64,000 bases of DNA from a virus, in IMG/VR virus record IMGVR_UViG_3300044475_000063, positions 32,001 through 96,000 of that record; one strand, written 5' to 3'. The notes below the pieces were generated by a model. It was not told where the DNA came from. It ran no database searches and was given only the letters and a program-made list of their open reading frames with translations. A program made the translations under genes and the position numbers. Positions 39,933-59,159 of the stretch are shown here, piece by piece. Numbering within the stretch: position 1 is the first letter of the stretch; every line of letters starts with the position of its first letter.

Positions 39933-40345
39933 GCGAATGGGCCCGTTCGATTGTCGTCGCCCATCTTCTTCAAACCTTGCAGAATATGGGTTGCCAGAGT
40001 CATGTATTCGCTGATCTGGCTTTCAGTCGGTGGCTCGCTGCTGTATTCGCTGATCGCCTGCAACGTGTCGCATCCGCTGCACGAGCCGTAGCTGACTTTC
40101 ACATACCAGTAATCATCAGGCTGATAACCACCGGCCGCGATTACGAAAACGAGCGTTCCTTGGTAGTCACCGTCATCAATCTGGTGGATGCGGGCCGGAT
40201 CTGGTGAGTCGTATTCGCTATCGCCGCCTACTACGCGAACAACGGCTTCTACGATATCCTTGTAACTGTCAGGATGCTTTGCTGCGAACACAGAACGCAA
40301 CGACTCACGGTTTGCATCAAAGCGCTCGATAAATTCTTTGATCAT
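39929..40345 (-). CDS. hypothetical protein (138 aa)
   Basis: aggagaag RBS. Overlapping stop/start. Confidence 0.55.
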   Translation of the reverse strand: MIKEFIERFDANRESLRSVFAAKHPDSYKDIVEAVVRVVGGDSEYDSPDPARIHQIDDGDYQGTLVFVIAAGGYQPDDYWYVKVSYGSCSGCDTLQAISEYSSEPPTESQISEYMTLATHILQGLKKMGDDNRTGPFA

Positions 40346-40375
40346 TCTCTTCTCCTATGCTGGCACTGCCGGCGG

Positions 40376-40606
40376 TTAGACTTCTGGTGGTGGTGGAAGT
40401 GGCTGCCAATGTGTTGGCTGGCTATCTCGGGTATCACGAGTTCCAAACGTGCGCTCACGGTCATCGGACCAATATGGCCGAGGTTTTTTGGCGTAACGGT
40501 CATCGTTGTACCATCCGAAAACAATCTTATCGCGTTCGCCTCGGCGTGCAAAAAGCATGATTCGGCTACCATCACGCGGAGCGGTTTCGATTGGCAGCCA
40601 GCTCAT
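40376..40606 (-). CDS. DUF551-like protein
   Basis: MSWLPIETAPRDG...THWQPLPPPP pattern. Confidence 0.55.
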   Translation of the reverse strand: MSWLPIETAPRDGSRIMLFARRGERDKIVFGWYNDDRYAKKPRPYWSDDRERTFGTRDTRDSQPTHWQPLPPPPEV

Positions 40607-40749
40607 AGCATCACTCCCTTATACCAAGCCGCAAACTCAGGCGCATAAAACAGCACCACACAGCCAGCCACCAGACCAGCAAAACCGGCAAAGTAGTAGA
40701 GCGCTCCGGTCAGCAACCATGGGCGCGATGTTGGGATGGCGGCCTTCAT
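40603..40749 (-). CDS. small membrane protein (48 aa)
   Basis: LLTGALYYFAGFAGLVAGCVVLFY. ATGA overlaps on both sides. Below the ORF-track cutoff. Confidence 0.4.
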   Translation of the reverse strand: MKAAIPTSRPWLLTGALYYFAGFAGLVAGCVVLFYAPEFAAWYKGVML

Positions 40750-40943
40750 TGCGAAGCCGCCATAGCGTAGATTTCTTCCTGTACCGATTCACGCGGCGTG
40801 CTCATATCGCCGAACTCGGCATAATCAGTAGCCGACCAGTCCCACCACATAGCGATGCCCATGCTTGGAATTTTGTGGGAGCCGATGAAGGTATAACGGA
40901 CGCGCCATTGCAGACGGTGAATTGCTTTGATGATCTTGCTCAT
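40746..40943 (-). CDS. hypothetical protein (65 aa)
   Basis: aggagaga RBS. Confidence 0.5.
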   Translation of the reverse strand: MSKIIKAIHRLQWRVRYTFIGSHKIPSMGIAMWWDWSATDYAEFGDMSTPRESVQEEIYAMAASQ

Positions 40944-41025
40944 GCTTCTCTCCTATTGGTTGTGGGTACTGCCTCAGTGCTTAACCCGGCTCGGGGCCGG
41001 GATGGGTGATGCTGCTGTGATTTGA

Positions 41026-41190
41026 TTATTCCGGCTTTACATCGATCTTGATGATGATGTCGTTGCCTTGGCCGTCGGAAGAGTTAATCATTGCCATAGT
41101 GTCGCCGGTTGCAACGCCAGCGAAGCCATAGGCGGCATTCAAGCGCTGAGTAGCGTAACGAACGATGTCTGCGAGGATTGCGTCTTTCAT
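41026..41190 (-). CDS. small hypothetical protein (54 aa)
   Basis: gaaggagaaacaca RBS before the ATG. Below the ORF-track cutoff. Confidence 0.45.
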   Translation of the reverse strand: MKDAILADIVRYATQRLNAAYGFAGVATGDTMAMINSSDGQGNDIIIKIDVKPE

Positions 41191-41219
41191 TGTGTTTCTC
41201 CTTCTTGGTGGTGGTTGAA

Positions 41220-41300
41220 TTACTTCCCAGCTTTGATGAACTGCGCAGCCATTGGAGCTACGATCAGAGACAGCAGAAGCCAGATGATGAAAATGTGCAT
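41220..41300 (-). CDS. very small hydrophobic peptide (26 aa)
   Basis: MHIFIIWLLLSLIVAPMAAQFIKAGK. aggagaa RBS. First ORF after the internal promoter. Confidence 0.35.
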   Translation of the reverse strand: MHIFIIWLLLSLIVAPMAAQFIKAGK

Positions 41301-41345
41301 GGTGTTCTCCTATTTGCGCTGCGGGATTCGCTGCGGCATGTAGTA

Positions 41346-41374
41346 ACTATACGCACTAGATTATTTAGCGTCAA
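41346..41374 (-). promoter_or_regulatory. near-consensus sigma70 promoter inside the leftward arm, with overlapping palindrome
   Basis: Minus strand TTGACG - 17 nt - TATAGT. Inverted repeat GTCAAC-TTTTAT-GTTGAC at 41370-41387 overlaps the -35. Confidence 0.6.
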
Positions 41375-41410
41375 CATAAAAGTTGACTTGTGTGGAAATA
41401 CAACAGGCGT

Positions 41411-41432
41411 AAAAAAGCCCAGTTAGGGGCTT
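41411..41432 (-). terminator. rho-independent terminator after 41436-42938
   Basis: Minus strand AAGCCCC-TAACT-GGGCTT followed by T6. Confidence 0.65.
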
Positions 41433-41435
41433 GTG

Positions 41436-42938
41436 TTATTCCGCTGGCTTGGCGGCGAGAGCGCGGATAGCCATTGCCTGTTCGGTGAAGGTCACGATGC
41501 CTTGATCGGCCTGATAGTCCTCGATAGTACGCGCCGCTTCCTCAATCCCGGCAGCGCGGCCCTTGGCGAACGCCTCGTCGCGTTCAGCCATCAGCCCGTG
41601 CGTTACCTTGCAGGCTTGCTCATTGGCGCGACGCATGCCTGCCTCGAATGCCTGGCTCAGCGCATCGCCCTGTGCGACAGGTGGCACCTTCCATGCCAGC
41701 GTGTACTTGCCGCATGCGCTTTGTTGCGCTTTCATCATCTCGCCAGGCTTAATATTTACGGGGATTACCCCGGTAACGAAGTTGCCATTGCTATCTGGCC
41801 AGCCACCATTTTCGGCAACGTGGATTTCTACACCGGCCGGTGGCGCATCACCCTGACAAGCACCAGCGTCAACCGCTTTCTGCTTCCAGTATTTGATTTC
41901 CGCCCTGGCGTCCGAAAGCCGTAGATCGGCCAGCGCATCACCCTGCGCGGTGGATGACTGGGCGGAAAACTTCGACACAACGGCTGCTGCTGCGTGAATA
42001 GCGCCGTTGAACGCAAAGCGCTTGTCCGGCGTCATCGAAGGATCAGGCTTTATCGCCAACACAGCGGCGTGAATAGCCTTCGCATCTACTGGTGCTACAT
42101 CTGCCTTCGCTTTCAGCCGCTCAATCTCCCGGCGCACGATGCCCAGCGCGGCGAACTCGTACCCTGTCAGATCGCCATCCGGCACACACGATTGCAGGCC
42201 CAGCAGGTCAACGATGCTGCGCAGGCGCGCGGTGGCGTCGACGTCCCAGGCTGGCGCTGTCTCAGTCTCGCCCCCGGTAAAGTCGGCCGGCTCCCACATG
42301 CCGGGGAGTTCTTCGGCTGGCGCTGCATCTGCTGGGGGATGGGCGGCTTCCAGTTCCCATTCACCGTACATGCCGCCTGTTCCGTTTTCACCAACCACGT
42401 TGTAAGGTTTAGTTTGGTCAGGGTAGATGCGTTGAATCACCCCTTCTCGCTTAAAACTATCCGTGGTTATTACTCGATCCCCGGCAGAGAACTTCATAGC
42501 AACACCTGCCTGCTTGGAGGATGCTGTCACATCAGCGGCTACAGGCGCGGCGGCTGGCTGTGGGGAGGCGACAGTGAGAATCTGACTAGGGACAACCTGA
42601 GACGATGAAGTATCTCCGTCTGCGCGCACTTGATAAAAAATGTGCGGTCGCTTGTCCTTGCTCCAACGGGTTTCAGATTTCGTGATGATGCCGCCGTAAA
42701 TGTGGCCAAACTCGTTGCGTACCTCTACCCTGTCTCCCTTATAAAATGATGGAATTCCTTCCGGCACCGCCACTGTCGGCACGCTGGCTACTGGCGCGGA
42801 CTGGCGGGTGGCGGCGATGGCGCGGGCGAACGCTCGGTAGTTCTCGACGCCGCCCAGCGCTGCATACGGCTCAGCAATCACATCGATCTGCTCGTCGCTC
42901 AGCCCTTGAATGTCTTTGTTCGTTTCCATGGTGGTCAT
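41436..42938 (-). CDS. large hypothetical early protein (500 aa), multi-module paralog-family member
   Basis: Contains LSDEQIDVIAEPYAALGG...FARAIAA and an internal GMWEPADFTGGETE. Confidence 0.65.
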   Translation of the reverse strand: MTTMETNKDIQGLSDEQIDVIAEPYAALGGVENYRAFARAIAATRQSAPVASVPTVAVPEGIPSFYKGDRVEVRNEFGHIYGGIITKSETRWSKDKRPHIFYQVRADGDTSSSQVVPSQILTVASPQPAAAPVAADVTASSKQAGVAMKFSAGDRVITTDSFKREGVIQRIYPDQTKPYNVVGENGTGGMYGEWELEAAHPPADAAPAEELPGMWEPADFTGGETETAPAWDVDATARLRSIVDLLGLQSCVPDGDLTGYEFAALGIVRREIERLKAKADVAPVDAKAIHAAVLAIKPDPSMTPDKRFAFNGAIHAAAAVVSKFSAQSSTAQGDALADLRLSDARAEIKYWKQKAVDAGACQGDAPPAGVEIHVAENGGWPDSNGNFVTGVIPVNIKPGEMMKAQQSACGKYTLAWKVPPVAQGDALSQAFEAGMRRANEQACKVTHGLMAERDEAFAKGRAAGIEEAARTIEDYQADQGIVTFTEQAMAIRALAAKPAE

Positions 42939-45707: not shown

Positions 45708-46357
45708 TAGGCTTCTCCATGTTCTTCGTAAATTTGCTCAACACGGCGGCGCAGGTAGGCTTGCGCAACCTTCACTTTTGCGATCATTTTTGCTTCGATT
45801 TCTGCATCGCGCTTGATCGTGGCGCGGGTTACTCGTAAAGCTGGGTCGATATGGTCAACTTCGTGCAGCGATGCTTGCTCCCACTTGCGTAGTTCTTCGG
45901 GAGTGCTTACCATCGTATAGGCTACCTCGCCTTCGTCTACATCGTAAAGAGCCATGTAAGACCACAGTTGATAGTCATAGCCTGATTTCTTTGCGATGGC
46001 TAGAACTTCCTCGCTGGTGGCGGGGAACGTCGCTAGTGACCATGCGTTTTTAATGTCGATAACTTTGGTCTTTGGAACCAAGATATCGCACTCACCAGTT
46101 ACCCATTCATTCGTTAAGCGAACCGTGTTTTTCTCATGGCGCGACAGCGTGACCATGTTGTAAAGGTCAATTGCTGCCTGTTCGCACTCAATGCCCTTTT
46201 TTAAATACTTGGTGTCGATTTCCTCGCGGAAGCCGTAGACGTATTCCTTGGCAATGCCGTTCAGGAAGGTTTTAGCGCCGACACTTAGGCCATCAGCGCC
46301 TTTGCCATCAGCCATCAACTCAGCAATCGAAGAAGCGCGGAAAGTGATATCGATCAT
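45707..46357 (-). CDS. PD-(D/E)xK exonuclease (lambda Exo/YqaJ-like, tentative)
   Basis: ECDIL...VIDIKN motif. ATGA overlap with the annealase stop. ORF-track start 46420 is an extension. Confidence 0.6.
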   Translation of the reverse strand: MIDITFRASSIAELMADGKGADGLSVGAKTFLNGIAKEYVYGFREEIDTKYLKKGIECEQAAIDLYNMVTLSRHEKNTVRLTNEWVTGECDILVPKTKVIDIKNAWSLATFPATSEEVLAIAKKSGYDYQLWSYMALYDVDEGEVAYTMVSTPEELRKWEQASLHEVDHIDPALRVTRATIKRDAEIEAKMIAKVKVAQAYLRRRVEQIYEEHGEA

Positions 46358-47100
46358 TTCTGCACCTCTTTTTGCGCCGCGATCATAGCCAATTCCTGAT
46401 CTGCATTCAGGGTGTACCACGCCTTAATTTCCTCAATTGTGTATTCTCCAGCCTTAACCGACTTCATCGCGTTTTCAAACTTCTTAGCGCTCATGATCGG
46501 CAGCGCCTTGGTTTTGGCTTGCTCGGCTTGACTTGCGCCGTTGCCGTCGTCATCGCTGTTTGCATCGGTCGAAGCGAGGCCGCAAACGGATTCGTAAGTA
46601 ACCGCCTTGGCATAGGTGATTGCGCTCTTAATCTTCTGAATCTCGTTTTTTGCACCAGTTCCATCTGGCGGCACAACGAACGGCACAGATTCAGAGTGGC
46701 CCAGCGAATGCGACAGAATGCACGTTACCTTAATCATGCTGCCGTTTTGCTCGATCTGCCAATCAGCCGACAAGCCGTGCTTACTCAGATAAGGCGCTAC
46801 AGTGTTGACCACGTTGCCAAGCGACGAATACCACGACTTGAACTGAGTATTGTATTTATCCTTGATGATCTTGATTGCCTCGCCTTTGAAAGCAGCCTTA
46901 GCAGCAGTGAAAGCCTTGCGCGCTTCATTGGCATCGTGACGCTCTTTCAAGGCCATCATGCGCTCGATAGTGTCGATATTGCCGCTTTGCAGGGCAACCA
47001 TCAGCATGTTGTCAGGCGTCGCCGACAATGCCGTCTGAGGCTGCGCTACAGGCAAAGCTTGCGCCCGCTGGTCATCGACCAACTGAATTTCTTGGTTCAT
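46354..47100 (-). CDS. single-strand annealing protein, ERF-like
   Basis: FKSWYSSLGNVVNTVAPYLSKHGL ... ILSHSLGHSE ... QKIKSAITYAK matches the ERF pattern recalled from P22 Erf. Confidence 0.6.
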   Translation of the reverse strand: MNQEIQLVDDQRAQALPVAQPQTALSATPDNMLMVALQSGNIDTIERMMALKERHDANEARKAFTAAKAAFKGEAIKIIKDKYNTQFKSWYSSLGNVVNTVAPYLSKHGLSADWQIEQNGSMIKVTCILSHSLGHSESVPFVVPPDGTGAKNEIQKIKSAITYAKAVTYESVCGLASTDANSDDDGNGASQAEQAKTKALPIMSAKKFENAMKSVKAGEYTIEEIKAWYTLNADQELAMIAAQKEVQK

Positions 47101-47104
47101 GGTT

Positions 47105-47685
47105 TCTCCGTGATGGGTAGTGTAAGGAGGGGATTTTCACCCCATTCCTTTTTAAGCGTGGTCGCTGTATGCAATAACTCTGGCGGGACGTTGTTTATCC
47201 TGAGTCTACTCAGAACCCGTCTTTGCATCTTCGATTCTGACCATATCGACCATGGGCATGTGCGCGTTCATGCTAGCGTGTGGTGGCCGGTGCTGATATC
47301 CGGCATTGGGCGTCTTATCCACGTTTCCCCATCCTTACTACCCAGCGTTTGGAACCCTGGTTGACAAGTAAGCGCATCAGCTTGCGCATTCACCACATCG
47401 AAACGGGCTAGGGCTTGATACCTAGCTAATCGTATGTCGGTCATACGACTACCAACCAGTTGCGGAACCCCTTTTTAACGAGTCGGTTAAGCCTCTTTTG
47501 TCGCCTTCAGGTTGGTTAAGCACCCTAAGCTCCGTTTCCGCCGACCTTGCTTAGCACGTCCTTCCGTGCTGCCGTTTCGATGTGGTTCCTAGCACTTACG
47601 CGGCTAGGTTACGATACTAGGAATTAATCCCTTGTCCTAGTAGCTTGCTAGATTCTTTCGCCGTTCTTGGCTCTAGCGGGCCAAA
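47105..47685 (-). ncRNA. large structured RNA candidate R (unknown class), paralog of 59461-59974
   Basis: ~580 nt with no credible ORF. 14-bp long-range helix 47572-47585/47393-47406. Blocks at 47555-47573, 47404-47424 and 47280-47296 are identical to blocks in the plus-strand copy. Confidence 0.5.
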
Positions 47686-47689
47686 AGGA

Positions 47690-47869
47690 TTACTTAACCG
47701 CCTTGTCAATCACGTCAACAAACAGCCAGCCGACGAAAGGCAAGAGAATCAAGCACAAGGTAAGTATAGCAACCTTATCCGCGTCATCGTTATCCTTTTT
47801 GTGTCGCTGCTGCATTTCTTTCCAGCTTTCGTTGCGTTTAGGCCACTTGTCGAATGGATCGTTAAGCAT
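47690..47869 (-). CDS. small C-terminally anchored membrane protein (59 aa)
   Basis: MLNDPFDKW... then AILTLCLILLPFVGWLFV. Confidence 0.5.
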   Translation of the reverse strand: MLNDPFDKWPKRNESWKEMQQRHKKDNDDADKVAILTLCLILLPFVGWLFVDVIDKAVK

Positions 47870-47870
47870 T

Positions 47871-48173
47871 TCATTCCCCTTTGGTGTGAACGTACATATC
47901 ATCGCGCTCGCGCTGCTCTGCGCGCATCTGCTTTTCAAGTGCGCGGCGGTCGCAAAGGTGCGTTACCTCGTAGCATGGGCCGTAGCTCAGTTTGATCCCG
48001 CCGCTTTCTGTTGCAAACTCTACGCCATCGTCTGCATAAACGCGAACGATAGTGCCGTCTTCGATAATACAGGTCAGAGTTACCGCCTGCACCTGCTTTA
48101 CAGGCATGCTTAATCCGCCGCCTATGCTGATATCCGTCTCAAGGTTGCTTACTACTAAGCCGATTGCTGGCAT
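47871..48173 (-). CDS. first leftward early protein (100 aa), unknown function
   Basis: ggagga RBS before the ATG at 48173. Not recognisably a repressor. Confidence 0.55.
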   Translation of the reverse strand: MPAIGLVVSNLETDISIGGGLSMPVKQVQAVTLTCIIEDGTIVRVYADDGVEFATESGGIKLSYGPCYEVTHLCDRRALEKQMRAEQRERDDMYVHTKGE

Positions 48174-48197
48174 ATTTCCTCCGTGTCGATGTGATGA

Positions 48198-48226
48198 ATA
48201 GTACATGCAATCTAGTTGATACGCAA
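48198..48226 (-). promoter_or_regulatory. leftward early promoter
   Basis: Minus strand TTGCGT - 17 nt - TACTAT. Inverted repeat ATACG-N6-CGTAT at 48219-48234 overlaps the -35. Confidence 0.55.
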
Positions 48227-48250
48227 TATCGTATTTTTACAACAGTTAGA

Positions 48251-48279
48251 TTGATGACGGATAACTCTCGTGCTACTAT
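48251..48279 (+). promoter_or_regulatory. rightward early promoter
   Basis: TTGATG - 17 nt - TACTAT. TTGAT(A/G)ACG repeated at 48216-48224 and 48251-48259. Confidence 0.55.
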
Positions 48280-48307
48280 TGAGGCTCAACAACCAAAGAG
48301 GTAACAC

Positions 48308-48571
48308 ATGACCGACATTGAGCAACCCAAGGAAGCAAAGAAGTACCCGAACGACACCAGCGGCAACCTGTTCGACTACATCAAGCGTAAGTTTGACCTT
48401 ACTACAGACGAAGCGCTGGCTCAGAAAACCGGCCTATGGAAGAACGACATCAGCCGCATCCGCAACGGCAAGCGCAAAGGCCTGACCAATAGCAACAAGC
48501 TGAAAATCCACGTATCAACCAAGCTGTCGATAGCAAAGATTGAGCGGCTTATTGCGAAGGAGGAAGAATGA
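48308..48571 (+). CDS. Cro/Ner-like helix-turn-helix regulator
   Basis: First rightward gene. LTTDEALAQKTGLWKNDISRIRNGKR HTH-like segment. Confidence 0.6.
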   Translation: MTDIEQPKEAKKYPNDTSGNLFDYIKRKFDLTTDEALAQKTGLWKNDISRIRNGKRKGLTNSNKLKIHVSTKLSIAKIERLIAKEEE

Positions 48572-48804
48572 GCGACGTTATGTTTTACGGCGTGTTGCGC
48601 ATGCCCTACGAAATGGCGATGGATGGCGAGATTAGCCGCTGGCAGTTCTGGCAGCGCGCACAGGAGGCCGTAGAACGAGTTGCGAAAGCTGAGGCCCGAG
48701 TAGCTGAATTGTCAGCCGCAATCGACAAACTAGCCGCTTGCAAAGGCCGCTATCACACAGAAGCTAATTTTAAGGAACTGCTTGCAGTTCGGGAGGGGAA
48801 ATAA
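48568..48804 (+). CDS. hypothetical protein (78 aa)
   Basis: ggaggaag RBS and overlap. Confidence 0.55.
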   Translation: MSDVMFYGVLRMPYEMAMDGEISRWQFWQRAQEAVERVAKAEARVAELSAAIDKLAACKGRYHTEANFKELLAVREGK

Positions 48805-49142
48805 TGGGCAATGCAATCCGTTTTGGAATACTTGGCGATGCTGGCTTGTCGCCCGTTATCGGTGAAGAATTTGAAATTGATGGAACCAAAGAACAATTTG
48901 CTGTTCACCCTTCTACCTATCGTGAGCGCGTTGAATTAGATTTCCTTTGGTGCGCAACTCATGTTGAAACAGGACTTCGCATTGCAAAAGGAAATGATAT
49001 CGATGAGGTTATTGAATTAGCGCGAGTGGCATGGAAAGATAAAACGCCTGAGCAAATCGAGTCTGCACTGGTTAATGGCCGCGCCATGCGACGCCAAGCA
49101 TTTCTTCAAAATCTAGATATATCTGACTTATGTAATGACTGA
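48804..49142 (+). CDS. hypothetical protein (112 aa)
   Basis: TAATG overlap. Confidence 0.55.
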   Translation: MGNAIRFGILGDAGLSPVIGEEFEIDGTKEQFAVHPSTYRERVELDFLWCATHVETGLRIAKGNDIDEVIELARVAWKDKTPEQIESALVNGRAMRRQAFLQNLDISDLCND

Positions 49143-49202
49143 TATTCCCCACGTAATGCCAATCAAAGACTTTGAGCGCATCAAGGCGCAGGAGGAAAAG
49201 AA

Positions 49203-49622
49203 ATGAAAATCGAACTGACCAAAATAGCAGAAGTTGAAGTCTCGGCGCTGGAAGTTGAAGCGGAAGTACGTTATTGGGAAGATGCTTCAATTGATGGCGT
49301 AGAAGATACCGAAGGCAAGATTCCTCTGCGCGATGGCGATTGCTGGCGTCCAATCATCAATCTGGCGACAGGCTTTATCAAAGACTGGCCGCAAGGCGTA
49401 ACAGCCAATGTTCATTACAAGGTCTGCGACCAAGGGCAATACTGGTTGCTGGATGAGGAAGGAAGGCGCGTAGCCAAGTGGAAGGGTTACTATGTCCCTG
49501 ACAGCCTCCTATGCCCGAATGGTAACGGCTACGGCGATTACATCATTCTCCAAATCGAGCAAGACGGCCATATCAATAGCTGGCGCTCTGCAATCGATAG
49601 CGAAGAATGGGAGGCGGTATGA
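49203..49622 (+). CDS. hypothetical protein (139 aa)
   Basis: aggagg RBS. The upstream 70 nt are homologous to window positions 9-76. Confidence 0.55.
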   Translation: MKIELTKIAEVEVSALEVEAEVRYWEDASIDGVEDTEGKIPLRDGDCWRPIINLATGFIKDWPQGVTANVHYKVCDQGQYWLLDEEGRRVAKWKGYYVPDSLLCPNGNGYGDYIILQIEQDGHINSWRSAIDSEEWEAV

Positions 49623-50029
49623 CCATCAACCTAACCCAAATCCGCAGCGACTTCGATAACGGCATCATCGTAAGCAAGCAGACTTTGCTTGCTCTGGTGG
49701 ATTATGCGATTGAGTTGGAAGGCAAGCCAATCACGCGGCAAGAGTATTGCAGCGAGCGCCCAGCGCGGTTTGTAGTATGTGCCGCCAATAAATACGGCGA
49801 TCTTGTTTTTACCGGCGTGCGGCATTTCTGTCCCGTTATGCAGGTCAATATGCAAGCCTACGATATTCCGGCGCTTCGCAAAGAGCGCGGCGAGGTGCAG
49901 GGCTTCATCGACCAGTTTGGCGTGTTCATGACACGCGAGGAGGCGGCAATCGTGGCAAAAGAATCGGGGCAGCTTGCGCGTTATGGCAATCATTGCCCAA
50001 CCGTTTTGTTTAGCGAGGACTTGTACTGA
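49619..50029 (+). CDS. hypothetical protein sharing its N-terminus with 379-651
   Basis: Identical first ~30 aa, different C-terminal domain (…GFIDQFGVFMTREEAA…LFSEDLY). Confidence 0.6.
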   Translation: MTINLTQIRSDFDNGIIVSKQTLLALVDYAIELEGKPITRQEYCSERPARFVVCAANKYGDLVFTGVRHFCPVMQVNMQAYDIPALRKERGEVQGFIDQFGVFMTREEAAIVAKESGQLARYGNHCPTVLFSEDLY

Positions 50030-50214
50030 TGCGATTTGAGAGCGATAAGATTGGCTTATACCGCCAAGCCACAGCAACGCGCAGCCCCGGCCCGAATAGC
50101 ACCTTTTTCTGCTGCCGCTGCGCTAAACCAAAACAGATCGTAGGACGCAAAAAAGTCGGCCAGAACGGGCGGCAGGCTTTGTATGCTTGTGTGTCTTGTC
50201 AGGAGGTGAAATGA
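50029..50214 (+). CDS. small zinc-ribbon-like protein
   Basis: Homolog of 641-826. Confidence 0.65.
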   Translation: MRFESDKIGLYRQATATRSPGPNSTFFCCRCAKPKQIVGRKKVGQNGRQALYACVSCQEVK

Positions 50215-50915
50215 AGCCGGTAATTATTAGTGATGCTGAACTGTGGCTGGGCGATTGTGCAGAAATTTTGCCGTTGATTGGTAAGGTGGATGCTGTTATT
50301 ACTGACCCACCATATGGTATTGGGGAGCGTAAAGGGACAATTTCCAAGGCCAGAAACCGCAATAATTATGAAAATTTTGATGATACTCCAGAAGCAATAA
50401 AAAATGAGATAGTCCCACGTTTTGAGCTTGCGCTCTCATTGGCTAATAGAGCAATTATGACTCCGGGAGGAAAGTGCTTTTCGATGTATCCGGCCCCTGT
50501 TGATATCGGCATGTCTTTTCAACCTGCAACATCGTCAATGACGCATTGGGGCCGCGCCACTTGCCAGCCAATTTTTTATTATGGGAAAGACCCGATGGCA
50601 GGGAAAACCATTAAGCCAATTCACTATCAGCTAACCGAAGCTCCGGAAAAAAATGGCCATCCATGTCCTAAGCCAATTGGATTTATGATGTGGATGGTTG
50701 ATAGAGGATCATTAAATGGCGAAGTAATTTTAGACCCATTCATGGGAAGTGGCACAACTGGAGTGGCATGTGTTCAACTTGGACGAAAGTTTATTGGCAT
50801 TGAGCGCGATGAACGATATTTTGAAATTGCTTGCCAGCGCATCGAGCGTGCCGTATCTCAAGGCCAGCTTTTTGCGCCAGCGCCTGTTAAACAAATACAG
50901 GAGCCTATGTTTTGA
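50211..50915 (+). CDS. DNA methyltransferase (beta-class N6A/N4C, DPPY)
   Basis: VITDPPYG near the N-terminus and ILDPFMGSGTTGVA near the C-terminus. No cognate nuclease evident. Absent from copy A. Confidence 0.8.
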   Translation: MKPVIISDAELWLGDCAEILPLIGKVDAVITDPPYGIGERKGTISKARNRNNYENFDDTPEAIKNEIVPRFELALSLANRAIMTPGGKCFSMYPAPVDIGMSFQPATSSMTHWGRATCQPIFYYGKDPMAGKTIKPIHYQLTEAPEKNGHPCPKPIGFMMWMVDRGSLNGEVILDPFMGSGTTGVACVQLGRKFIGIERDERYFEIACQRIERAVSQGQLFAPAPVKQIQEPMF

Positions 50916-51523
50916 AGCGCACCGAGCTAAAACGAAAAGTTGGCTTGCGGCCTTCGTCTATAACTAAGATGCCAAAGCCGCCGAAAGGGCCAAGAAAGCG
51001 TAAATGCGTGGTCTGCAAAGAACTGTTTGAGCCGCGCAGCATGACGCACAAAGCCTGTAAGCCAGAATGCGCAGCAATCCACGCAGAAGCGGTCAGGAAG
51101 GTGCAAGAGCGCAAGTCTGATCGAGAGCGCAAGCAAGCATTAAAAACGCGCCAAGACTGGTTACGCGAGGCGCAAGCAGCATTCAATACTTGGATTCGGC
51201 TGCGCGACCATGACCAGCCCTGCATTAGCTGTGGGCGGTTTCATGCTGGCTCCTTTGATGCGGGGCATTTTCGCTCTGTAGGTGCTGCACCAGCTTTGAG
51301 ATTTGATGAGAATAATTGCCATAAACAATGCGTCCCCTGCAACCAACACAAAGGCGGAAACATTCTTGAGTACCGTATCAGACTGATTGAAAAAATAGGC
51401 CGTGTTGCTGTCGAATGGCTAGAGCGTGAGCCGCCGCCAGCTAAGTACACGATTGAGGATGCGCAGCGGATTAAAGCTGAATATCAGCGCCGAGTGCGCG
51501 AAATGAAAAGGGAATTGCCTTGA
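50912..51523 (+). CDS. ninG: NinG/Rap-like recombination protein
   Basis: CxxC...CKPEC...CISCGR...DAGHF...CVPCNQHKGGN pattern. TTG start overlapping the MTase stop. Confidence 0.7.
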   Translation: MKRTELKRKVGLRPSSITKMPKPPKGPRKRKCVVCKELFEPRSMTHKACKPECAAIHAEAVRKVQERKSDRERKQALKTRQDWLREAQAAFNTWIRLRDHDQPCISCGRFHAGSFDAGHFRSVGAAPALRFDENNCHKQCVPCNQHKGGNILEYRIRLIEKIGRVAVEWLEREPPPAKYTIEDAQRIKAEYQRRVREMKRELP

Positions 51524-51897
51524 AACTTACAAAAATTCAGCGCGCAACCTTGCGAGAAATGTTCGGTGGCCTGTGCGCCTATTGCGGCCAGTCATTGGGC
51601 GACCGATGGCATGCTGACCATAAAGAACCAGTGTTGCGAGGATATGCACCTACGAGTGAAGAAAATCCTTTAGGAATCCTGCATACACAGCGCGACCAGA
51701 TAGAAAACCTGATGCCAGCATGTGCGCCATGTAATCTCGATAAGGCCAGCTATTCGCTGGATCAGTGGCGCGGAAAATTGGAGCGCTCGGCATCCTCGTT
51801 GCAGCGTTACAGTTCTACGTACCGCCATGCTTTCAGGTTTGGCCTTGTAGCTCCGATTGCTGAAAAAGTCGTTTTCCACTTTGAGAAAGTCAAATGA
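51520..51897 (+). CDS. HNH endonuclease
   Basis: CAYCG...HADHKEP...NLMPACAPCNLDK. Confidence 0.75.
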   Translation: MKLTKIQRATLREMFGGLCAYCGQSLGDRWHADHKEPVLRGYAPTSEENPLGILHTQRDQIENLMPACAPCNLDKASYSLDQWRGKLERSASSLQRYSSTYRHAFRFGLVAPIAEKVVFHFEKVK

Positions 51898-52196
51898 AAG
51901 TCACCTATGGCGCACTAGCTGACCTAGTAGGCCAAGCAGAGCCACTAGACCCAAGCAAGATGCAGTATCGGTCTGTCCCTGCTGTAGTATGGGTGTCGCG
52001 TAAGGATGCCTTAAAGTCTGAGCGAGCGTGTAACCAATGCATCTTCAAGGGCCAGAAATCGAAAGTCTGCGTACAGGCTGGGCAGCTTGCGCGCCTTGCT
52101 GGGCATAACGACTGCGAGGACCGAGACACTGAGACAGACAAGACTTTCATCTATGAGCTAGTCCCTACAGACCCTCGCCAACTAACCATAGCCTAA
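51894..52196 (+). CDS. conserved hypothetical protein
   Basis: Near-identical to 1797-2099. Confidence 0.65.
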   Translation: MKVTYGALADLVGQAEPLDPSKMQYRSVPAVVWVSRKDALKSERACNQCIFKGQKSKVCVQAGQLARLAGHNDCEDRDTETDKTFIYELVPTDPRQLTIA

Positions 52197-52200
52197 CCCT

Positions 52201-52223
52201 AAGCCGCCTAGTGCGGCTTTTTT
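52201..52223 (+). terminator. rho-independent terminator
   Basis: Same hairpin as 2104-2126. Confidence 0.75.
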
Positions 52224-52243
52224 GCAACTTCGCAATTTTGTTG

Positions 52244-52272
52244 TTGACGCGTGATAATCTTAGGTCTATGAT
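52244..52272 (+). promoter_or_regulatory. sigma70-like promoter
   Basis: TTGACG - 17 nt - TATGAT, as at 2147-2175. Confidence 0.6.
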
Positions 52273-52322
52273 TCTTCACATGGGCAGCGCATTGTGTGCT
52301 GCGGAGATAGGAGCAAGACATC

Positions 52323-52550
52323 ATGGAAACCAGCAAAGAGGGCATCAAGTTTCAAATAAAAGAAACGCACATCGCAGACATCAAAGCTGGCGACACCGTG
52401 CTGCATAACGGGCATCTGAAAACTGTTTGCGGTAAAAATATCAAGAGCGACAAATTCCTCGGCACGTCTTTGTTTGGCGATACATACATGGGTGGTCGCT
52501 TGATGGTTAAGAAAGCTGAGATATTCCACGCAATGCCTGCCCGTCACTAA
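52323..52550 (+). CDS. hypothetical protein (75 aa)
   Basis: ORF after the promoter. Not homologous to the copy A gene at this position. Confidence 0.5.
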   Translation: METSKEGIKFQIKETHIADIKAGDTVLHNGHLKTVCGKNIKSDKFLGTSLFGDTYMGGRLMVKKAEIFHAMPARH

Positions 52551-52597
52551 CCCACCCCGCCCGCGACAAGCGGGCGCTACCTGAAAGGATGAATCAC

Positions 52598-52806
52598 GTT
52601 TGATGACTATGAAGAAGAGCCAGAAGCAAAGCGCATCTTTGACATTGCCGATCAGCTAGATGATCGCTTGGATGATTACGCGCTTGAGCGCTGCAAATCG
52701 TCGGAGGACGTTATACGCGGCGGCAAGCATGGGCGCGTGTACACCTTTCACGATGGGAGCAAATTGACCACGGCTGAAACTGGCTATGTTGGTTGCGAAT
52801 ACTGAT
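52598..52806 (+). pseudogene. homolog of 2448-2657 lacking a start codon (ATG to ACG)
   Basis: Frame otherwise intact and conserved. In-frame TGA lies 2 codons upstream. No internal Met. Confidence 0.5.
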
Positions 52807-52879
52807 TAACCGGCCCGCTAGACGGGCCTAAGCCACTAGAACCTAGCGCAATTGTGCGCTGGTAGATATAGGAGGAAGT

Positions 52880-53170
52880 ATGAGCAAGCATACGCCGGGA
52901 CCTTGGGTAATCAATCGCAATCAAACTGATTGCGGCGAAGATAAAATCAGCATTGAAGCCGCTGATGAATATTTTATCGCGCAAGTTGATCCCGGAGTAA
53001 GTCAAGAAGCAAACGCTAGCCTGATCGCTGCCGCGCCTGAACTGCTGGAAGCTTGCCAATTGATGCTTACTGCAATGAAGCTGGCAAATTGGGAGGGCGA
53101 TTTTGCAGCGCTAAAAGGAATTGCGGCGATTGCCAAAGCAACCGGCGAAACTCATGAGGAGGAAGTATGA
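52880..53170 (+). CDS. hypothetical protein with PGPW...AAAPELLEA motif
   Basis: ggagg RBS. Confidence 0.55.
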   Translation: MSKHTPGPWVINRNQTDCGEDKISIEAADEYFIAQVDPGVSQEANASLIAAAPELLEACQLMLTAMKLANWEGDFAALKGIAAIAKATGETHEEEV

Positions 53171-53346
53171 GTGAAGATGAAAAAGACGAGTGGTTTTCTA
53201 AGGGATACAGTTCCTATACTTCACTGGGAGATATAACGCCACCTGAGAATGCCACTCAAGAACAGAAACACGAATGGTATGAAGGCTGGCAACAGGCTGT
53301 GCGCGACAGTTATGAGTTCCATGATGATTATGGAGCTTCACTTTAG
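53167..53346 (+). CDS. hypothetical acidic protein (59 aa)
   Basis: ATGA overlap. Below the ORF-track cutoff. Confidence 0.4.
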   Translation: MSEDEKDEWFSKGYSSYTSLGDITPPENATQEQKHEWYEGWQQAVRDSYEFHDDYGASL

Positions 53347-53397
53347 CACCTAGCAACCAGCAGTAGAATAAACCAATTTCACTAAGCGGAGGCGGTC

Positions 53398-53586
53398 ATG
53401 GTAACAGTGTCTCAGATGGTAAGGGCGTTAAATTCGGATCAGCATTGCCACATGGCTTCATGGGAGCGTGACGCGGTGCATCGAGCGCATATTCGATCTT
53501 GCCACGGCCTGAAGCCTTATCACCTGACGCTCCGCGAGTGCGAATTAATCATCACTATTTTTAACAGGGTGTACCAAAATGCGTAA
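53398..53586 (+). CDS. conserved hypothetical protein
   Basis: Homolog of 2972-3160. Confidence 0.55.
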   Translation: MVTVSQMVRALNSDQHCHMASWERDAVHRAHIRSCHGLKPYHLTLRECELIITIFNRVYQNA

Positions 53587-53677
53587 ATTCAACTGGCCGT
53601 TTTTGATCGCCATGCTAATCAGCGCTGGCATTTGGGGCGCTGTAATCTGGCGCGTGTGGAGTGCTAATCATGGCTGA
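53579..53677 (+). CDS. small single-pass membrane protein (32 aa)
   Basis: MRKFNWPFLIAMLISAGIWGAVIW. Homolog of 3153-3251. Confidence 0.4.
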   Translation: MRKFNWPFLIAMLISAGIWGAVIWRVWSANHG

Positions 53678-53882
53678 AATTCGCATGACAGAGCGTGAAA
53701 AAGCTTTGAGCCGTGCTAGTGAGGCTGGCGAGAATGATTTTTTTCGCCGTGGCTCAATAAACCCAGCGTATGAAAAAGATGCAGGGCTAAAGCAAGCATG
53801 GGAACAAGGCTATAAGCGCGCCAAACAAAACGAAATTGCGTGGCAAAGGTATGAGCAAAACATCGGGAGATATCATGATTAA
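53670..53882 (+). CDS. hypothetical protein (70 aa)
   Basis: ATG at 53670 overlapping the small ORF end. No copy A counterpart. Confidence 0.45.
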   Translation: MAEIRMTEREKALSRASEAGENDFFRRGSINPAYEKDAGLKQAWEQGYKRAKQNEIAWQRYEQNIGRYHD

Positions 53883-54096
53883 AATTGGACGACCATCGCA
53901 CCTTGAAGCAGTAGCTTCCGCGCTTCCCGGCACTCGCAACCAGATCGCCAAGAGAGTAGGCATCAGCGCTGCTTGTGCAGGCCGTTTGCTGCGCGTTCTG
54001 GACGAAAAAAAGGCGATCTATGTGGTTACACATGCCGTTCCAAAACAAGGCCCCAAAATGCCTATATTCGCGTTGAAGAGGCAAACAAATGGCTAA
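53875..54096 (+). CDS. small helix-turn-helix DNA-binding protein
   Basis: Homolog of 3244-3453. Confidence 0.6.
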   Translation: MIKIGRPSHLEAVASALPGTRNQIAKRVGISAACAGRLLRVLDEKKAIYVVTHAVPKQGPKMPIFALKRQTNG

Positions 54097-54502
54097 GATG
54101 GGCCGTCCCGATTGCCGCGATAAAGTCTTGGCTGCGCTTCCTGGCATCCGTAGCCAAGTTGCAAAACGCGCTGGCGTTGCAGTTTCAAGCGCTGGAAAGT
54201 GGCTCGATATCCTGCACAAGGAAGGCTTGCTCTACATTAGCCAGTGGCGCACTCAAAAGGGTAATGGCGCTCGCTTGCCGCTTTACAAGCTAAAGGTAAC
54301 GGGCAAAGAGGTAGACCGGCCTCGACCACCAGCGCTAGGCGAAGAAACGTACCAGCAGCGCTACAACGAGCGCCATCCGCACCGCCGCACCGAGATTCGC
54401 AAGGCGTATGAAGAACGCCAGCGGCAAGCAGCGCTCAAGCGGAAGAAGGCCATAGCAGCTTGGGCCGCGCCCCTGACTACTGTTGTTTCTAAGTCGTGGT
54501 AA
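54089..54502 (+). CDS. winged-helix-like DNA-binding protein with basic C-terminus
   Basis: Related to 3454-3843. Confidence 0.55.
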   Translation: MAKMGRPDCRDKVLAALPGIRSQVAKRAGVAVSSAGKWLDILHKEGLLYISQWRTQKGNGARLPLYKLKVTGKEVDRPRPPALGEETYQQRYNERHPHRRTEIRKAYEERQRQAALKRKKAIAAWAAPLTTVVSKSW

Positions 54503-54687
54503 CTCTATAGCAGTTTTTTAGTGTAGAATCGTATTCGTTGGGCTAGTAATCCAACACCTCAGACGAAAGCAAAGCATGAACACCTATCAGAGTATTTTCT
54601 GGAGCGACATGGGCGAAAGCCTGTCCTTCCGTCCGGGGTTACGTCCTGCTGGCCTTACTAACCAGCCTCTCCAGAAAGTGCTTTGAT

Positions 54688-55002
54688 ATGAAAATCAAGA
54701 AACTTACCAAGCTACTCAATATTGCCGATCTGGCTATTGAGCATCAAAAAGCGCAAAACGCTACCAAAGAAGCGCAACGCCGCTATCACATCGCATGGCA
54801 GAAATACGAAACTGGTGACGAATGGCGGGGTGATGACGAAGATTTTTACGTCCATCCAGAAGAACGAATATCGCGCCATCATCCTGAATTTGAAGAAGCT
54901 TGCAAGGCAACCAAGGCTGTTTATGAAAAATACAAAGCGAAGAAACGCGCCGAGTACAACATCAGCCGCCGTCTTAAAACAGCAATTCGTAATCTGAAAT
55001 AA
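54688..55002 (+). CDS. hypothetical basic protein (104 aa)
   Basis: ORF after a 185-nt gap. Confidence 0.5.
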   Translation: MKIKKLTKLLNIADLAIEHQKAQNATKEAQRRYHIAWQKYETGDEWRGDDEDFYVHPEERISRHHPEFEEACKATKAVYEKYKAKKRAEYNISRRLKTAIRNLK

Positions 55003-55014
55003 ATAAGGTATCAA

Positions 55015-55944
55015 ATGAGGGACTATTCCAAAATTGGGCCTAAGTTCTGGATCGGGAAAACCGGGAAAGAGCTTCGTGCGCGAGGGCTTGAGGCTCAGAT
55101 TGTCGCAATGTATTTGTTGACTAGCCCTCATGCAAACATGCTTGGCCTCTACTATTGCCCGTTAATGTTCATCGCGCATGAGACAGGAATGGGCATGGAA
55201 GGGGCTAACAAGGGGCTTCAAAGCTGCATTGAAGTGGGGTTTTGTGAGTATGATGTCAACACTGAGATGACTTGGGTTATCGAAATGGCTTCATATCAGA
55301 TAGCAGACAGTCTTGCAGAGAAGGATTTGCGAGTAAAAGGCGTCATGAATGAGTATGCCAGTCTGCCAGATAACCCTTATTTGGCGCGGTTTTACGATAG
55401 ATATGGCCAAGCTTTCCTGATGTCAGAAAAACGGATTCCTCAATGCTCTGAACAAGCCCCTTTGAAGCCCCTTGAAAGCCAAGAGCAGGAACAAGAGCAG
55501 GAACAGAAGAAAGAGCAAGAGCAGGATGGTTACGCCGGGGCTTCGCCCTCGTCGGCCCCGAAAAAAAATCAGATGAGCGTTGTAAGGCAAAACAAGGAGC
55601 CAGCACCGACCAGCGCAACATGGCACTCATATTCCGATGCTTACGAATTGAGGTATAGAGCGCCTCCGGTTAGGAATGCAAAGGTTAATGGTCAGCTTGC
55701 CCAACTGATTGCAAGGCTTGGGGCGGAAGAAGCGCCAGCAGTAGCGGCCTTCTACGTGAGCCACAACAATCGGTACTACATCAACAAGATGCACTCTGTA
55801 GACCTTTTGCTTGCCGATGCTGAAAAACTTAGGACGGAGTGGGCGACAGGGCGTAGGGTCACAGCAACAGCCGCCCAAGAGGCGGATAGGCTACAAGAAA
55901 CCGGCGATATGTGGAGTCGGATCATGGACGAACAAGGAAAGTAA
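55015..55944 (+). CDS. putative replication initiator/replisome organiser (tentative)
   Basis: By position. N-terminal domain, then a QEQEQEQEQKKEQEQ linker and a basic C-domain. Not homologous to copy A at this position. Confidence 0.5.
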   Translation: MRDYSKIGPKFWIGKTGKELRARGLEAQIVAMYLLTSPHANMLGLYYCPLMFIAHETGMGMEGANKGLQSCIEVGFCEYDVNTEMTWVIEMASYQIADSLAEKDLRVKGVMNEYASLPDNPYLARFYDRYGQAFLMSEKRIPQCSEQAPLKPLESQEQEQEQEQKKEQEQDGYAGASPSSAPKKNQMSVVRQNKEPAPTSATWHSYSDAYELRYRAPPVRNAKVNGQLAQLIARLGAEEAPAVAAFYVSHNNRYYINKMHSVDLLLADAEKLRTEWATGRRVTATAAQEADRLQETGDMWSRIMDEQGK

Positions 55945-55947
55945 AAA

Positions 55948-56595
55948 ATGGCATCGAAAGAACTTATTCAGGCAATAGCAGCTACGGCAGAACTATGCGG
56001 TGCAAAGCTATCGGAAGCGGCGGCAAAGATGCTTGTAGCCGATCTGTCGCACTTCAACGAGCAAGACGTTATGGCGGCGTTGTCTCGCGTAAGGAAAAGC
56101 GGCAAGCGATTCTCATTGAGCGCAATCACTGACGAAATGTCTGAGGTTGATGGCCGTCCTGGCGTTGAGGAAGCTTGGGCGCTAGTTCCCCATTCGGAAG
56201 AGGCTTCTGTCGTGTGGACTGAGGAAATAGCAAAAGCGCATGGCGTTGTCTATGATCTTCTGAGAACAGATAAAGTCGCTGCGCGAATGGCATTCAAGGA
56301 AACTTATGTCCGTATTGTTGCGGAAGCAAGGGAGCAAGGTATCCCCGTTAAATGGTTCCCCTCGCTTGGCGGCGATGTGCTGGGCCGTCAGCAAGCATTA
56401 ATTGACGCCGTTAATAAAAATCGCCTCAAGGCAGAATATGCGATCAGGTTATTGCCGCCTGATTATGCTGATGGGCTTTTAGCTCTGACGAATAATCAAA
56501 CTATGATGCTTCCAGCGCCTGATCCAGAAGCAAAAAAACGGGTTTTTCTAATGCTAGAAAATTTGAAACAATCTTTGATTAAAAATCAATCATGA
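55948..56595 (+). CDS. putative replication accessory protein (tentative)
   Basis: By position after the initiator candidate. Confidence 0.45.
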   Translation: MASKELIQAIAATAELCGAKLSEAAAKMLVADLSHFNEQDVMAALSRVRKSGKRFSLSAITDEMSEVDGRPGVEEAWALVPHSEEASVVWTEEIAKAHGVVYDLLRTDKVAARMAFKETYVRIVAEAREQGIPVKWFPSLGGDVLGRQQALIDAVNKNRLKAEYAIRLLPPDYADGLLALTNNQTMMLPAPDPEAKKRVFLMLENLKQSLIKNQS

Positions 56596-56786: not shown

Positions 56787-56799
56787 AAGGAGAAGGAAA

Positions 56800-57033: not shown

Positions 57034-57045
57034 AGGGGAATTACC

Positions 57046-57333: not shown

Positions 57334-57341
57334 GAGGGTAA

Positions 57342-57764: not shown

Positions 57765-57782
57765 AATTATTTGGAGATAATT

Positions 57783-58452: not shown

Positions 58453-58460
58453 GTTTCAAA

Positions 58461-58534: not shown

Positions 58535-58539
58535 AGAAT

Positions 58540-58672: not shown

Positions 58673-58680
58673 AAGATTAT

Positions 58681-59150: not shown

Positions 59151-59159
59151 TGAATAGTT

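Follow-up and report, generated by a model that had tools for sequence, protein, structure and literature searches.

The sequence analyzed here, henceforth the window, is a stretch of 64,000 nucleotides (nt) from the IMG/VR virus record IMGVR_UViG_3300044475_000063 (positions 32,001 to 96,000 of that record). Within its leftward early operon, 589 nt without coding on the minus strand (window 47101-47689) extend from the stop codon of a small upstream open reading frame (ORF) to the ATG of a gene for an ERF-family single-strand annealing protein, past which lie genes for an exonuclease (PHROG 5715) and a NinB-like protein. This gap is made up of two adjacent, separately conserved RNA motifs plus flanks, and is not one 580-nt fold (Table 1). 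The two motifs, termed here motif A (~187 nt) and motif B (~125 nt), each recur in a tRNA island of the same window, and by the comparisons described below they are assigned to two widespread families of phage and prophage RNAs.

A sequence-only reading of this DNA had described a non-coding, densely paired segment upstream of the annealase gene, in an operon of otherwise near-complete coding density. The lack of coding is borne out. The transcribed strand of the gap holds only four ORFs, of 58, 43, 38 and 30 amino acids (aa), and the three that lie wholly within it have no PHROG match. The 58-aa ORF overlies a conserved RNA motif, the members of which show no preference for any length modulo three (58/47/60) and have stops in two of the three frames throughout, with the third frame open in 48 of 165. 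Protein coding in the gap was therefore rejected: the small ORFs lack family matches and the motif lacks frame conservation. The statement on coding density is slightly too strong, as 40345-41436 is also without a long minus-strand ORF. With regard to folding, the minimum free energy (MFE) of the 581-nt stretch is -198.3 kcal/mol versus -172.8 +/- 7.25 for 100 shuffles (z -3.5, with one shuffle as good); the dense pairing thus stands as a better fold than in the shuffles, but it is distributed over two motif instances and their flanks. The z-scores of the individual modules range from -0.35 to -2.55, none of them exceptional, and were left out as evidence; hence, the support for the modules rests on covariation and not on stability.

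No promoter-like site was found in 46900-48700, and the sole terminator-like site on the minus strand of this interval is the P2 hairpin of motif B described below, a count within chance; nor does a convincing minus-strand intrinsic terminator follow the motifs downstream in the left operon. The segment is therefore likely to be co-transcribed with the leftward operon, as had been proposed.

Table 1. Features of the gap, of the tRNA island and of their borders, in window coordinates
Feature	Position	Strand	Evidence or remark
Motif A, copy 1	47396-47582	-	R2 67.0 bits, E 9.3e-17, full length
Motif A, copy 2	59518-59644	+	R2 69.3 bits, E 2.2e-17
Motif B, copy 1	47276-47400	-	R1 77.7 bits, E 7.5e-20
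Motif B, copy 2	59816-59967	+	R1 57.1 bits, E 4.7e-14
Inverted repeat, 5' arm, ACCACAUCGAAACGG	47572-47586	-	Self-BLAST 15/15; in MFE structure
Inverted repeat, 3' arm, CCGUUUCGAUGUGGU	47392-47406	-	Self-BLAST 15/15
Small upstream ORF, 59 aa	47690-47869	-	Stop is the 5' border of the non-coding segment; ORF list
5' flank, CTAG-rich local hairpins	47583-47689	-	Fold z -2.55
3' extension hairpin GCAUG-AACGCGCA-CAUGC	47235-47275	-	Kept after motif B in related copies
ERF gene leader, with ribosome-binding site GGAGA	47101-47234	-	Fold z -1.0, unexceptional
ERF-family single-strand annealing protein (downstream gene)	46354-47100	-	Pfam PF04404, E 6.5e-15
Promoter-like site before island	58263-58291	+	Consensus scan 9/12, weak
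tRNA-Arg(UCU), tRNA-Gly(UCC), island start	58377-58534	+	ARAGORN and Rfam
tRNA-Ile	59975-60052	+	ARAGORN and Rfam
Strong terminator-like hairpin plus seven T (TTTTTTTGTC)	60074-60095	+	Ends island before terminase genes

Motif B is defined by a closing helix (P1), a 5' hairpin (P2), an intervening segment of variable length (J2/3) and a 3' hairpin (P3) that abuts the 3' strand of the closing helix (P1'). In copy 1 these correspond to UGUGGUG/CACCACA for P1, an AAU linker, GCGCA-AGCUGA-UGCGC for P2, a 66-nt insert with two hairpins, GCCGG-AUAUCAGCA-CCGGC for P3 and CACCACA for P1', and the MFE structure of this module alone reproduces P1, P2 and P3. In copy 2, P2 is GCGGA-GGCUGA-UCCGC and P3 is GCCAG-AGUUCAGCA-CUGGC, both of which are compensatory with respect to copy 1. 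A covariance model, R1, was built from 52 diverse copies of other phages (alignment A1), with no sequence from the window; applied to the 64 kb it yields two strong sites, which are the two copies of motif B. In alignment A1, 94% of the cells are paired, both sides change in five pairs of P1 and three pairs of P3, and the covariation score is reached by none of 500 shuffles. RNAalifold, run independently on the same alignment, recovers a P1 of 7 bp and hairpins P2 and P3 of 5 bp each, with P3 directly adjoining P1'.

The loop segments GCUGA of P2 (L2) and UCAGC of P3 (L3) are complementary, pointing to a loop-loop pairing. Compensated variants, collected with a pattern that bars C at the second position of this pairing, include GUCGA/UCGAC (loci L330, L341, L344), UGCGA/UCGCA (L335), GUUGA/UCAAC (L340) and UCUGA/UCAGA (L251); a further recurring variant, GAUGA, is uncompensated. 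The predicted kissing interaction between the two hairpins of motif B is thus well supported. A tRNA-like 3' ACCA end ('GGCCACCA') was also considered for motif B and rejected, as the base after CACC varies (CACCCU, CACCGC, CACCUA).

Motif A has a comparable organization. In copy 1, the P1 helix (UCGAAACGG/CCGUUUCGA) is followed by a CA linker, a P2 hairpin GCACG-GAAGGA-CGUGC, a variable insert of ~120 nt, a T-arm-like hairpin CUAGG-UAUCAAGC-CCUAG (in the consensus, GCCGG-UAUCAAGC-CCGGC) and the 3' strand of P1, while the P1 of copy 2, AUCAUCGG/CCGAUGAU, is compensatory with respect to copy 1. The corresponding covariance model, R2, comes from 34 copies of other phages (alignment A3), again with no window sequence, and matches both motif A sites in the window and nothing else. 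An 18-mer of the motif, GCAGCACGGAAGGACGTG, is present in 93 IMG/VR contigs; in these loci R2 gives 98 matches, some of them extra copies without the exact 18-mer. Across 94 distinct sequences, 95% of the cells are paired and double changes are seen in 16 of 19 pairs, figures that are to be read with two caveats: the seed extraction chose the 3' strand of P1 by complementarity, and the alignment of the 94 sequences was fitted to the model. P1 has seven robust pairs, followed by the 5-bp 3' hairpin. The 3' loop (UAUCAAGC, UUUCGAGC) is T-loop-like only if one or two extra nucleotides are allowed. Resemblances of the GGAAGGA loop of motif A to a CsrA site, or to signal recognition particle or sarcin-ricin mimicry, were loose and by eye and were not used.

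Self-BLAST of the gap gives three short collinear matches to 59526-59963 in the tRNA island, where the copies of A and B are 171 nt apart and motif B ends 7 nt before the start of tRNA-Ile. A paralog in this island had been announced by the sequence-only reading; what recurs is the two modules and not the whole 580 nt. Its companion proposal, that the same folds are produced from both units, agrees with the presence of R1 and R2 sites in the tRNA/late unit.

The two motifs share a plan reminiscent of tRNA. In both, a 7-bp closing helix is stacked on the 5-bp 3' hairpin to give 12 bp, which is the length of a tRNA acceptor plus T-stem; a conserved 5' (D-like) hairpin comes after a linker of 2-3 nt, and the helices follow the order acceptor-like, D-like, variable, T-like, acceptor. 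The middle region is free in both sequence and length, ranging from 12 nt (L115) to more than 200 nt: in motif B of L109 it contains a complete tRNA-Pro, and in L076, L243 and L257 it contains tRNA D and T arms. In contrast to tRNA, the motifs lack an anticodon arm of fixed size, and the elbow of motif B is a 5-bp Watson-Crick kissing contact instead of the D-loop/T-loop contact; 46800-48000 has no tRNA match even at E up to 10. The association with tRNAs extends to their arrangement: all tRNAs within 1 kb are on the strand of the motif (23/23 for B, 41/41 for A), the spacers are tRNA-like and as short as 5-15 nt (window B copy 2; L010, L060, L088, L251), and the motifs are found inside tRNA arrays (L010, L034, L088, L274, L319). 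At L319 a tRNA ends 8 nt before the conserved GCAG of motif A, that is, 1-2 nt before the closing helix.

The two motifs were recognized as conserved units from BLAST searches of isolated phages, in which short matches of at least 90% were seen in unrelated Escherichia and Klebsiella phages, among others. A 23-mer of motif B (GGTGAATGCGCANGCTGATGCGC) occurs in at least 120 IMG/VR contigs and in 104 stretches from one-genome-per-species bacterial assemblies, the carriers being Enterobacterales, Pseudomonas, Moraxellaceae, Halomonadaceae, Burkholderiales and some alpha-proteobacteria. Among 5426 complete E. coli genomes (RefSeq), only 13 have it, and there it carries no annotation. A query consisting of a motif B copy and its upstream hairpin matches 169 isolated phage records. 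The core of both motifs is nearly invariant across alpha-, beta- and gamma-proteobacterial hosts, with unrelated flanks and inserts.

The neighborhoods of the motifs are diverse: the 175 ORFs downstream of motif loci fall into 133 protein clusters, and no conserved protein partner was found in the neighborhood (133 and 131 clusters, ~170 flanking ORFs). A tandem of A followed by B was likewise rejected as a rule, as a near-canonical motif A lies within 400 nt upstream at only 2 of 229 B sites; B-like variants often follow motif A. The layout of the window is mirrored at L251, with an A+B tandem and another copy of B separated by 5 nt from a tRNA downstream, and several phages carry 2-3 copies per transcription unit or copies within tRNA arrays. 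Further contexts of motif B are: the lambdoid late leader of E. coli prophages, between Q and holin (L124, L125); the PL-leader position downstream of cI-type repressors (L007-type cluster); phage HK620 (L327), with motif B at 16093-16188 (R1 83.8 bits) between pR'/qut and the late terminator tQ; and phage P1 (L326, NC_005856), with two copies at 69816-69919 and 70077-70202 on the plus strand (67.4 and 35.7 bits with R1) in the leader of the ban operon, between tRNA-Thr and tciA. The HK620 copy would form part of the short leader RNA made from pR', presumably constitutively as in lambda. Phages Bas77-80 are further carriers of motif B. The copies of phage P1 underlie coding-sequence annotations on the opposite strand, plp and upl, which may be mis-annotations.

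The nearest relative found by its ERF gene (L230/L231, 74% identity) has a tRNA-Arg(UCU) in the slot of the gap and lacks both motifs; of the leader, only the last ~70 nt, outside A and B, are shared with L230. Accordingly, A and B appear to fill a slot of the early left operon that related phages give to a tRNA gene. Taken with the paired substitutions, this comparison shows the two motifs as predicted RNAs conserved at the level of their pairing and as apparent cargo, not a fixed part of the recombination module.

The motifs are further connected by a long inverted repeat. The sequence-only reading had pointed to a 14-bp helix spanning about 190 nt; this is real, and is in fact a perfect 15-nt inverted repeat. 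The inner 9 nt of its 5' arm are P1 of motif A and the outer ACCACA duplicates the 3' strand of P1 of motif B, such that the repeat lengthens P1 of motif A by ACCACA/UGUGGU. Conversely, the last 6 nt of its 3' arm are 6 of the 7 nt of the 5' strand of P1 of motif B. As these 6 nt are shared by both helices, the long helix of motif A and P1 of motif B are mutually exclusive. The resulting trio, ACCACA ... UGUGGU ... CACCACA, lies in the window at 47586-47572 / 47406-47392 / 47285-47279, and enterobacterial copies have the same three-part layout with other sequences. A helix from upstream that invades GGUG is seen at 52 of 152 loci versus ~15 of 152 in a conservative permutation control. Such an invading helix may act as a switch, represent an intermediate of folding, or simply result from two helices that abut.

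Searches of Rfam 15, at gathering thresholds or with E up to 10, gave nothing relevant for the motifs of the gap or the island, and motif A has no known relative. For motif B a distant counterpart can be recognized in STnc100, which, like PasD, is an Hfq-associated small RNA of prophages (Salmonella, E. coli) encoded near Q and the lysis genes; for PasD the location near Q has been reported (bioRxiv 10.64898/2026.05.13.724894). In neither 46800-48000 nor 58200-60300 does the STnc100 model (RF02076, gathering threshold 47 bits) give a match, even with E up to 10. Nevertheless, motif B shares with STnc100 the UGGUG...CACCA closing helix, the AAU linker, the 5' hairpin, the variable middle and the abutting 3' hairpin, and many motif B copies occupy the niche of STnc100 and PasD between Q and holin. 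R1 aligns over its full length, weakly (19.2 bits, E 3e-4), to a true STnc100 (Rfam 207.7 bits) that lies in a lambdoid late region, 75 nt downstream of stx2 (stx2B). Two Klebsiella phage loci (L002, L003) have sub-threshold Rfam STnc100 matches with R1 scores of ~20 bits at the same places, and the weaker motif B copy of phage P1 has an STnc100-like P3, CCGGG-AAGCA-CCCGG, intermediate between the families. Motif B differs from STnc100 in its hairpin and loop sequences and in a range far beyond Enterobacteriaceae; moreover, the B copies of the window are in the early left operon and the tRNA island and not in a late leader. Motif B is thus probably a distinct, much more widespread and distant relative of STnc100.

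Several other RNAs offer partial parallels. RNAC and RNAD of phage T4 are encoded within its tRNA cluster and matured alongside the tRNAs. Motifs A and B are comparable to them, by description, in being small phage RNAs (PMC9697503 for RNAC and RNAD) and in their residence inside tRNA arrays. The large ornate RNAs GOLLD and ROOL give no Rfam match here, and each would be a single conserved fold of more than 500 nt; A and B are two autonomous modules of ~125-190 nt, mostly apart, and come from other host phyla. GOLLD and ROOL are prophage-borne and often beside tRNAs, GOLLD at times with a nested tRNA. Kissing loops are reported to be structurally important in both (PMC12286853). The put RNA of HK022, of ~70 nt, has two stem-loops in a V and no closing helix (PMC9378689). 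Like put, A and B are cis-encoded RNAs of phages that occur twice per genome, once in each major operon, in leader position; unlike put, they have a closing-helix junction, and B a loop-loop pairing, and there is no evident sequence similarity. Identity with a put-like antiterminator was rejected on this architecture and on the lack of minus-strand terminators after copy 1, and is kept as a functional rival only. The antisense RNAs C4 and CI of phages P1, P7 and P4 have a closing stem and two hairpin loops and are excised by RNase P from a longer transcript. C4 has no Rfam match in the window and its loops pair with a target mRNA, whereas those of motif B pair with each other.

A number of candidates were set aside. 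YrlA RNAs, some of them in phages, are modular with a tRNA-like domain in which the T arm precedes the D arm, carry a GNCGAA Rsr-binding motif and have a Ro60 gene within 4 kb (PMC4201824); A and B have no Rfam match to them and differ in the order of arms. For self-cleaving ribozymes (hammerhead, twister, twister-sister, pistol, hatchet and hepatitis delta virus (HDV)-like) there is no match at E up to 10 and the junction is unconserved. A purine-type riboswitch would be expected to keep the junction nucleotides of its ligand pocket and to let the helices covary, the reverse of the pattern seen here, where helices and loops are near-invariant and J2/3 accepts from 12 to more than 200 nt. Neither ARAGORN nor Rfam finds a transfer-messenger RNA (tmRNA) in 47101-47689, and tmRNA was dropped as an explanation of the gap, the window segment having no tag frame. 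Large catalogues of candidate phage RNAs have been published (PMC10690425), and these may already list A and B without names.

Given the above, we see about an even chance that the gap holds two tandem cargo genes for stable, tRNA-shaped RNAs, which are excised like tRNAs and act in trans. The RNAs would be transcribed within the long early-left or tRNA-island transcript and be freed by the tRNA-processing machinery of the host, with RNase P cutting 5' of each closing helix and endo- and exonucleases trimming the 3' side, to persist as discrete stable species. The invariant scaffold might then serve as a processing signal, as a source of nuclease resistance and as a surface for binding a conserved host partner, with specificity provided by the variable middle; and the RNAs would act in trans, as is assumed for STnc100 and PasD, and not on the recombination genes. 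That the helices hardly vary from one host class to another implies a conserved partner.

A number of observations weigh against this proposal. Motif B has neither the canonical D-loop (GG) nor T-loop (UUCRA) nucleotides; there is no conserved 3' NCCA, as the nucleotides past the 3' strand of P1 vary (ACA, CAC, CCA, CUC and others); and neither ARAGORN nor the Rfam tRNA model RF00005 calls the elements as tRNAs. Few loci have a called tRNA within 1 kb (12 of 106 for motif B, 17 of 93 for motif A), most copies being placed between ORFs inside operons, an arrangement that suits a cis role just as well. Helices that vary so little call for a specific partner, and none was found among the neighborhood genes. 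Excision and stability of the two RNAs are themselves inferred, the kinship with STnc100 rests on weak scores and the function of STnc100 is itself hypothesized. Finally, the pairing that invades P1 of motif B hints at a switch, which a simple stable RNA would not need.

Alternatively, the motifs might act in cis upon the operons that contain them, by put-like anti-termination, by blocking the loading of Rho onto a long untranslated stretch, or by capping and stabilizing the downstream mRNA, a reading that we consider unlikely despite several points in its favor. Motif B stands at the heads of long operons (PL-leader, HK620 pR'/qut-tQ, Q-holin); copy 2 of the window is just upstream of the strong terminator before the terminase genes; terminator-like sites up to 200 nt downstream are present at 26 of 162 loci versus 7 of 145 in a control interval, a roughly three-fold excess; invariance across host classes would be compatible with binding to a target conserved in all hosts, for example RNA polymerase; and the alternative pairing into P1 of motif B could be the switch. 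The put RNA, however, has a different architecture, without the closing helix (PMC9378689), no convincing intrinsic terminator on the minus strand follows copy 1, a modifier of RNA polymerase would make 2-3 copies per unit or placement within arrays superfluous, and the lambdoid late operon is already served by the Q antiterminator. That A and B are self-cleaving or otherwise catalytic RNAs punctuating polycistronic and tRNA transcripts (compare the HDV-like 'theta', hammerhead and twister ribozymes) is very unlikely: a highly conserved core with a length-variable periphery, multiple copies per genome, the near-zero tRNA spacers (L319) and the pseudoknot-like loop pairing of B would suit such an RNA, but no Rfam ribozyme matches at E up to 10, the hammerhead, twister and HDV core sequences are absent on inspection of the sequence, the conserved nucleotides are in helices and loops with no junction able to hold an active site, and J2/3 of motif B can be anywhere from 12 to more than 200 nt long.

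A slightly smaller chance still attaches to the motifs being functionless remnants, such as decayed tRNA or tmRNA genes, or selfish DNA repeats. Many copies do contain tRNA fragments, the island holds other tRNA-like debris (58790-58909), and the distribution is patchy among related prophages, with the first prophage of the window lacking both motifs. Against this, compensation within P1, P3 and the kissing loops indicates selection on pairing of the RNA or of a single strand, the core stays invariant amid unrelated flanks and inserts in three proteobacterial classes, and the orientation is always that of the nearby tRNAs. Least probable of all, and highly unlikely, is that the segment serves recombination in particular, as a leader for that module or as an RNA cofactor for its annealase and exonuclease. 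These, together with a processed stable RNA, were the options offered by the sequence-only reading, of which the stable RNA fits best while the recombination-specific ones are contradicted. The position directly upstream of the ERF and exonuclease genes, with which the motifs would be co-transcribed, is what speaks for such a link. There is no preferred neighbor, given the 133 clusters among 175 downstream loci; copies are found in tRNA arrays, in late leaders and in the ban operon of phage P1; the second copies in the window precede tRNA-Ile and the terminase genes; and L230/L231, at 74% ERF identity, has tRNA-Arg(UCU) instead of both motifs and shares with the window only the last ~70 nt of the leader, outside A and B.

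A broader and doubtful extension, though one to which we would give some room, unites A, B, STnc100/PasD and the hairpin preceding enterobacterial B in one superfamily of tRNA-shaped phage RNAs, the elbow of which docks on a conserved host machine, with the sequence upstream of B as a switch. The machine may be RNA polymerase, the ribosome, RNase P or a tRNA-targeting defense nuclease, and the RNAs may reprogram transcription or translation from operon heads and tRNA arrays, or serve as decoys for tRNA-directed immunity. Regardless of function, two RNA families with a near-invariant core in phages of alpha-, beta- and gamma-proteobacteria are missing from Rfam 15; naming them would improve phage annotation and account for many non-coding gaps, and would provide the poorly understood STnc100/PasD of Shiga-toxin phages with a wider family context. 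The tRNA dimensions, the Watson-Crick elbow and the middle that can hold a tRNA make for a natural scaffold of structural and engineering interest, and tractable phages now allow a direct search for the conserved partner.

The hairpin just mentioned is a third conserved element, which stands immediately 5' of most enterobacterial B copies and is found at 67 of 229 B sites (L124, L001, L008, L014, L030 and others): it is long (CACAACAGGTAAGAGCATTG ... CAGTGCTCTTTCCGTTGTG) and its apex often has tRNA-like T arms. In the E. coli phage Bas80 (L001, 1150-1330) and the Klebsiella phage Magnus (L002, 1190-1350), a tmRNA-like tag frame, GCAAACGATGATGTnGTTCTGATGGCGGCGTAATAG, encoding ANDDVVLMAA followed by two stops, lies upstream of B, and is possibly part of a phage tmRNA variant; the region has sub-threshold matches to the Rfam models tmRNA_permuted and alpha_tmRNA and no ARAGORN tmRNA call.

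As for the flanks of the motifs in the gap, 47646-47549 is 76% identical to L301 and the match continues into motif A of that locus, such that part of the 5' flank is conserved. On the other side, the homology of L234, L127 (Massilia), L199 (Burkholderiaceae) and L110 passes the end of motif B to 47235-47253, and two copies with the 3' extension hairpin come from Burkholderiales genomes. The ERF leader has in common with its relative L230 the aligned 21-mer CAGCGACCACGCUUAAAAAGG (~47150-47170). The small ORF upstream of the gap matched no Pfam or PHROG family.

Only four ordinary tRNAs were called in the window by ARAGORN and Rfam. The tRNA-Ile of the island is given the anticodon AAT by ARAGORN and scores 47.2 bits with Rfam, several pairs of its acceptor stem being non-standard. 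Elsewhere in the island, 58790-58909 on the plus strand looks like the tRNA-like domain of a tmRNA (end ...GGGTTCAATTCCCATCAGGTCCACCA), with an Rfam score of 25.6 bits, below the gathering threshold of 47, and is uncalled by ARAGORN, and 59351-59406 is a T-arm-like sequence with a very weak tRNA match (16.6 bits, E 5.3). The window contains two tandem, mosaic, related prophages at an offset of ~50 kb (1-13000 versus 49135-63400, 74-100% identity in patches), which differ in the ORF of the large terminase (9454-10926 versus 60752-62185). The best terminase match on record has only 54% identity, and no recorded protein is identical to the ERF protein. The tRNA region of the first prophage, 8494-8893, has no motif A, motif B or tRNA-Ile. 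At 4066-4186 on the plus strand, the first prophage carries a match to the Betaproteobacteria-1 RNA RF02932 (57.2 bits, gathering 49.4), with no Rfam counterpart in the second. A 150-nt segment of the island, 58688-58838 on the plus strand, is 74% identical to an unannotated part of the jumbo Ralstonia phage RSP15 (95509-95655), and is perhaps another RNA module.

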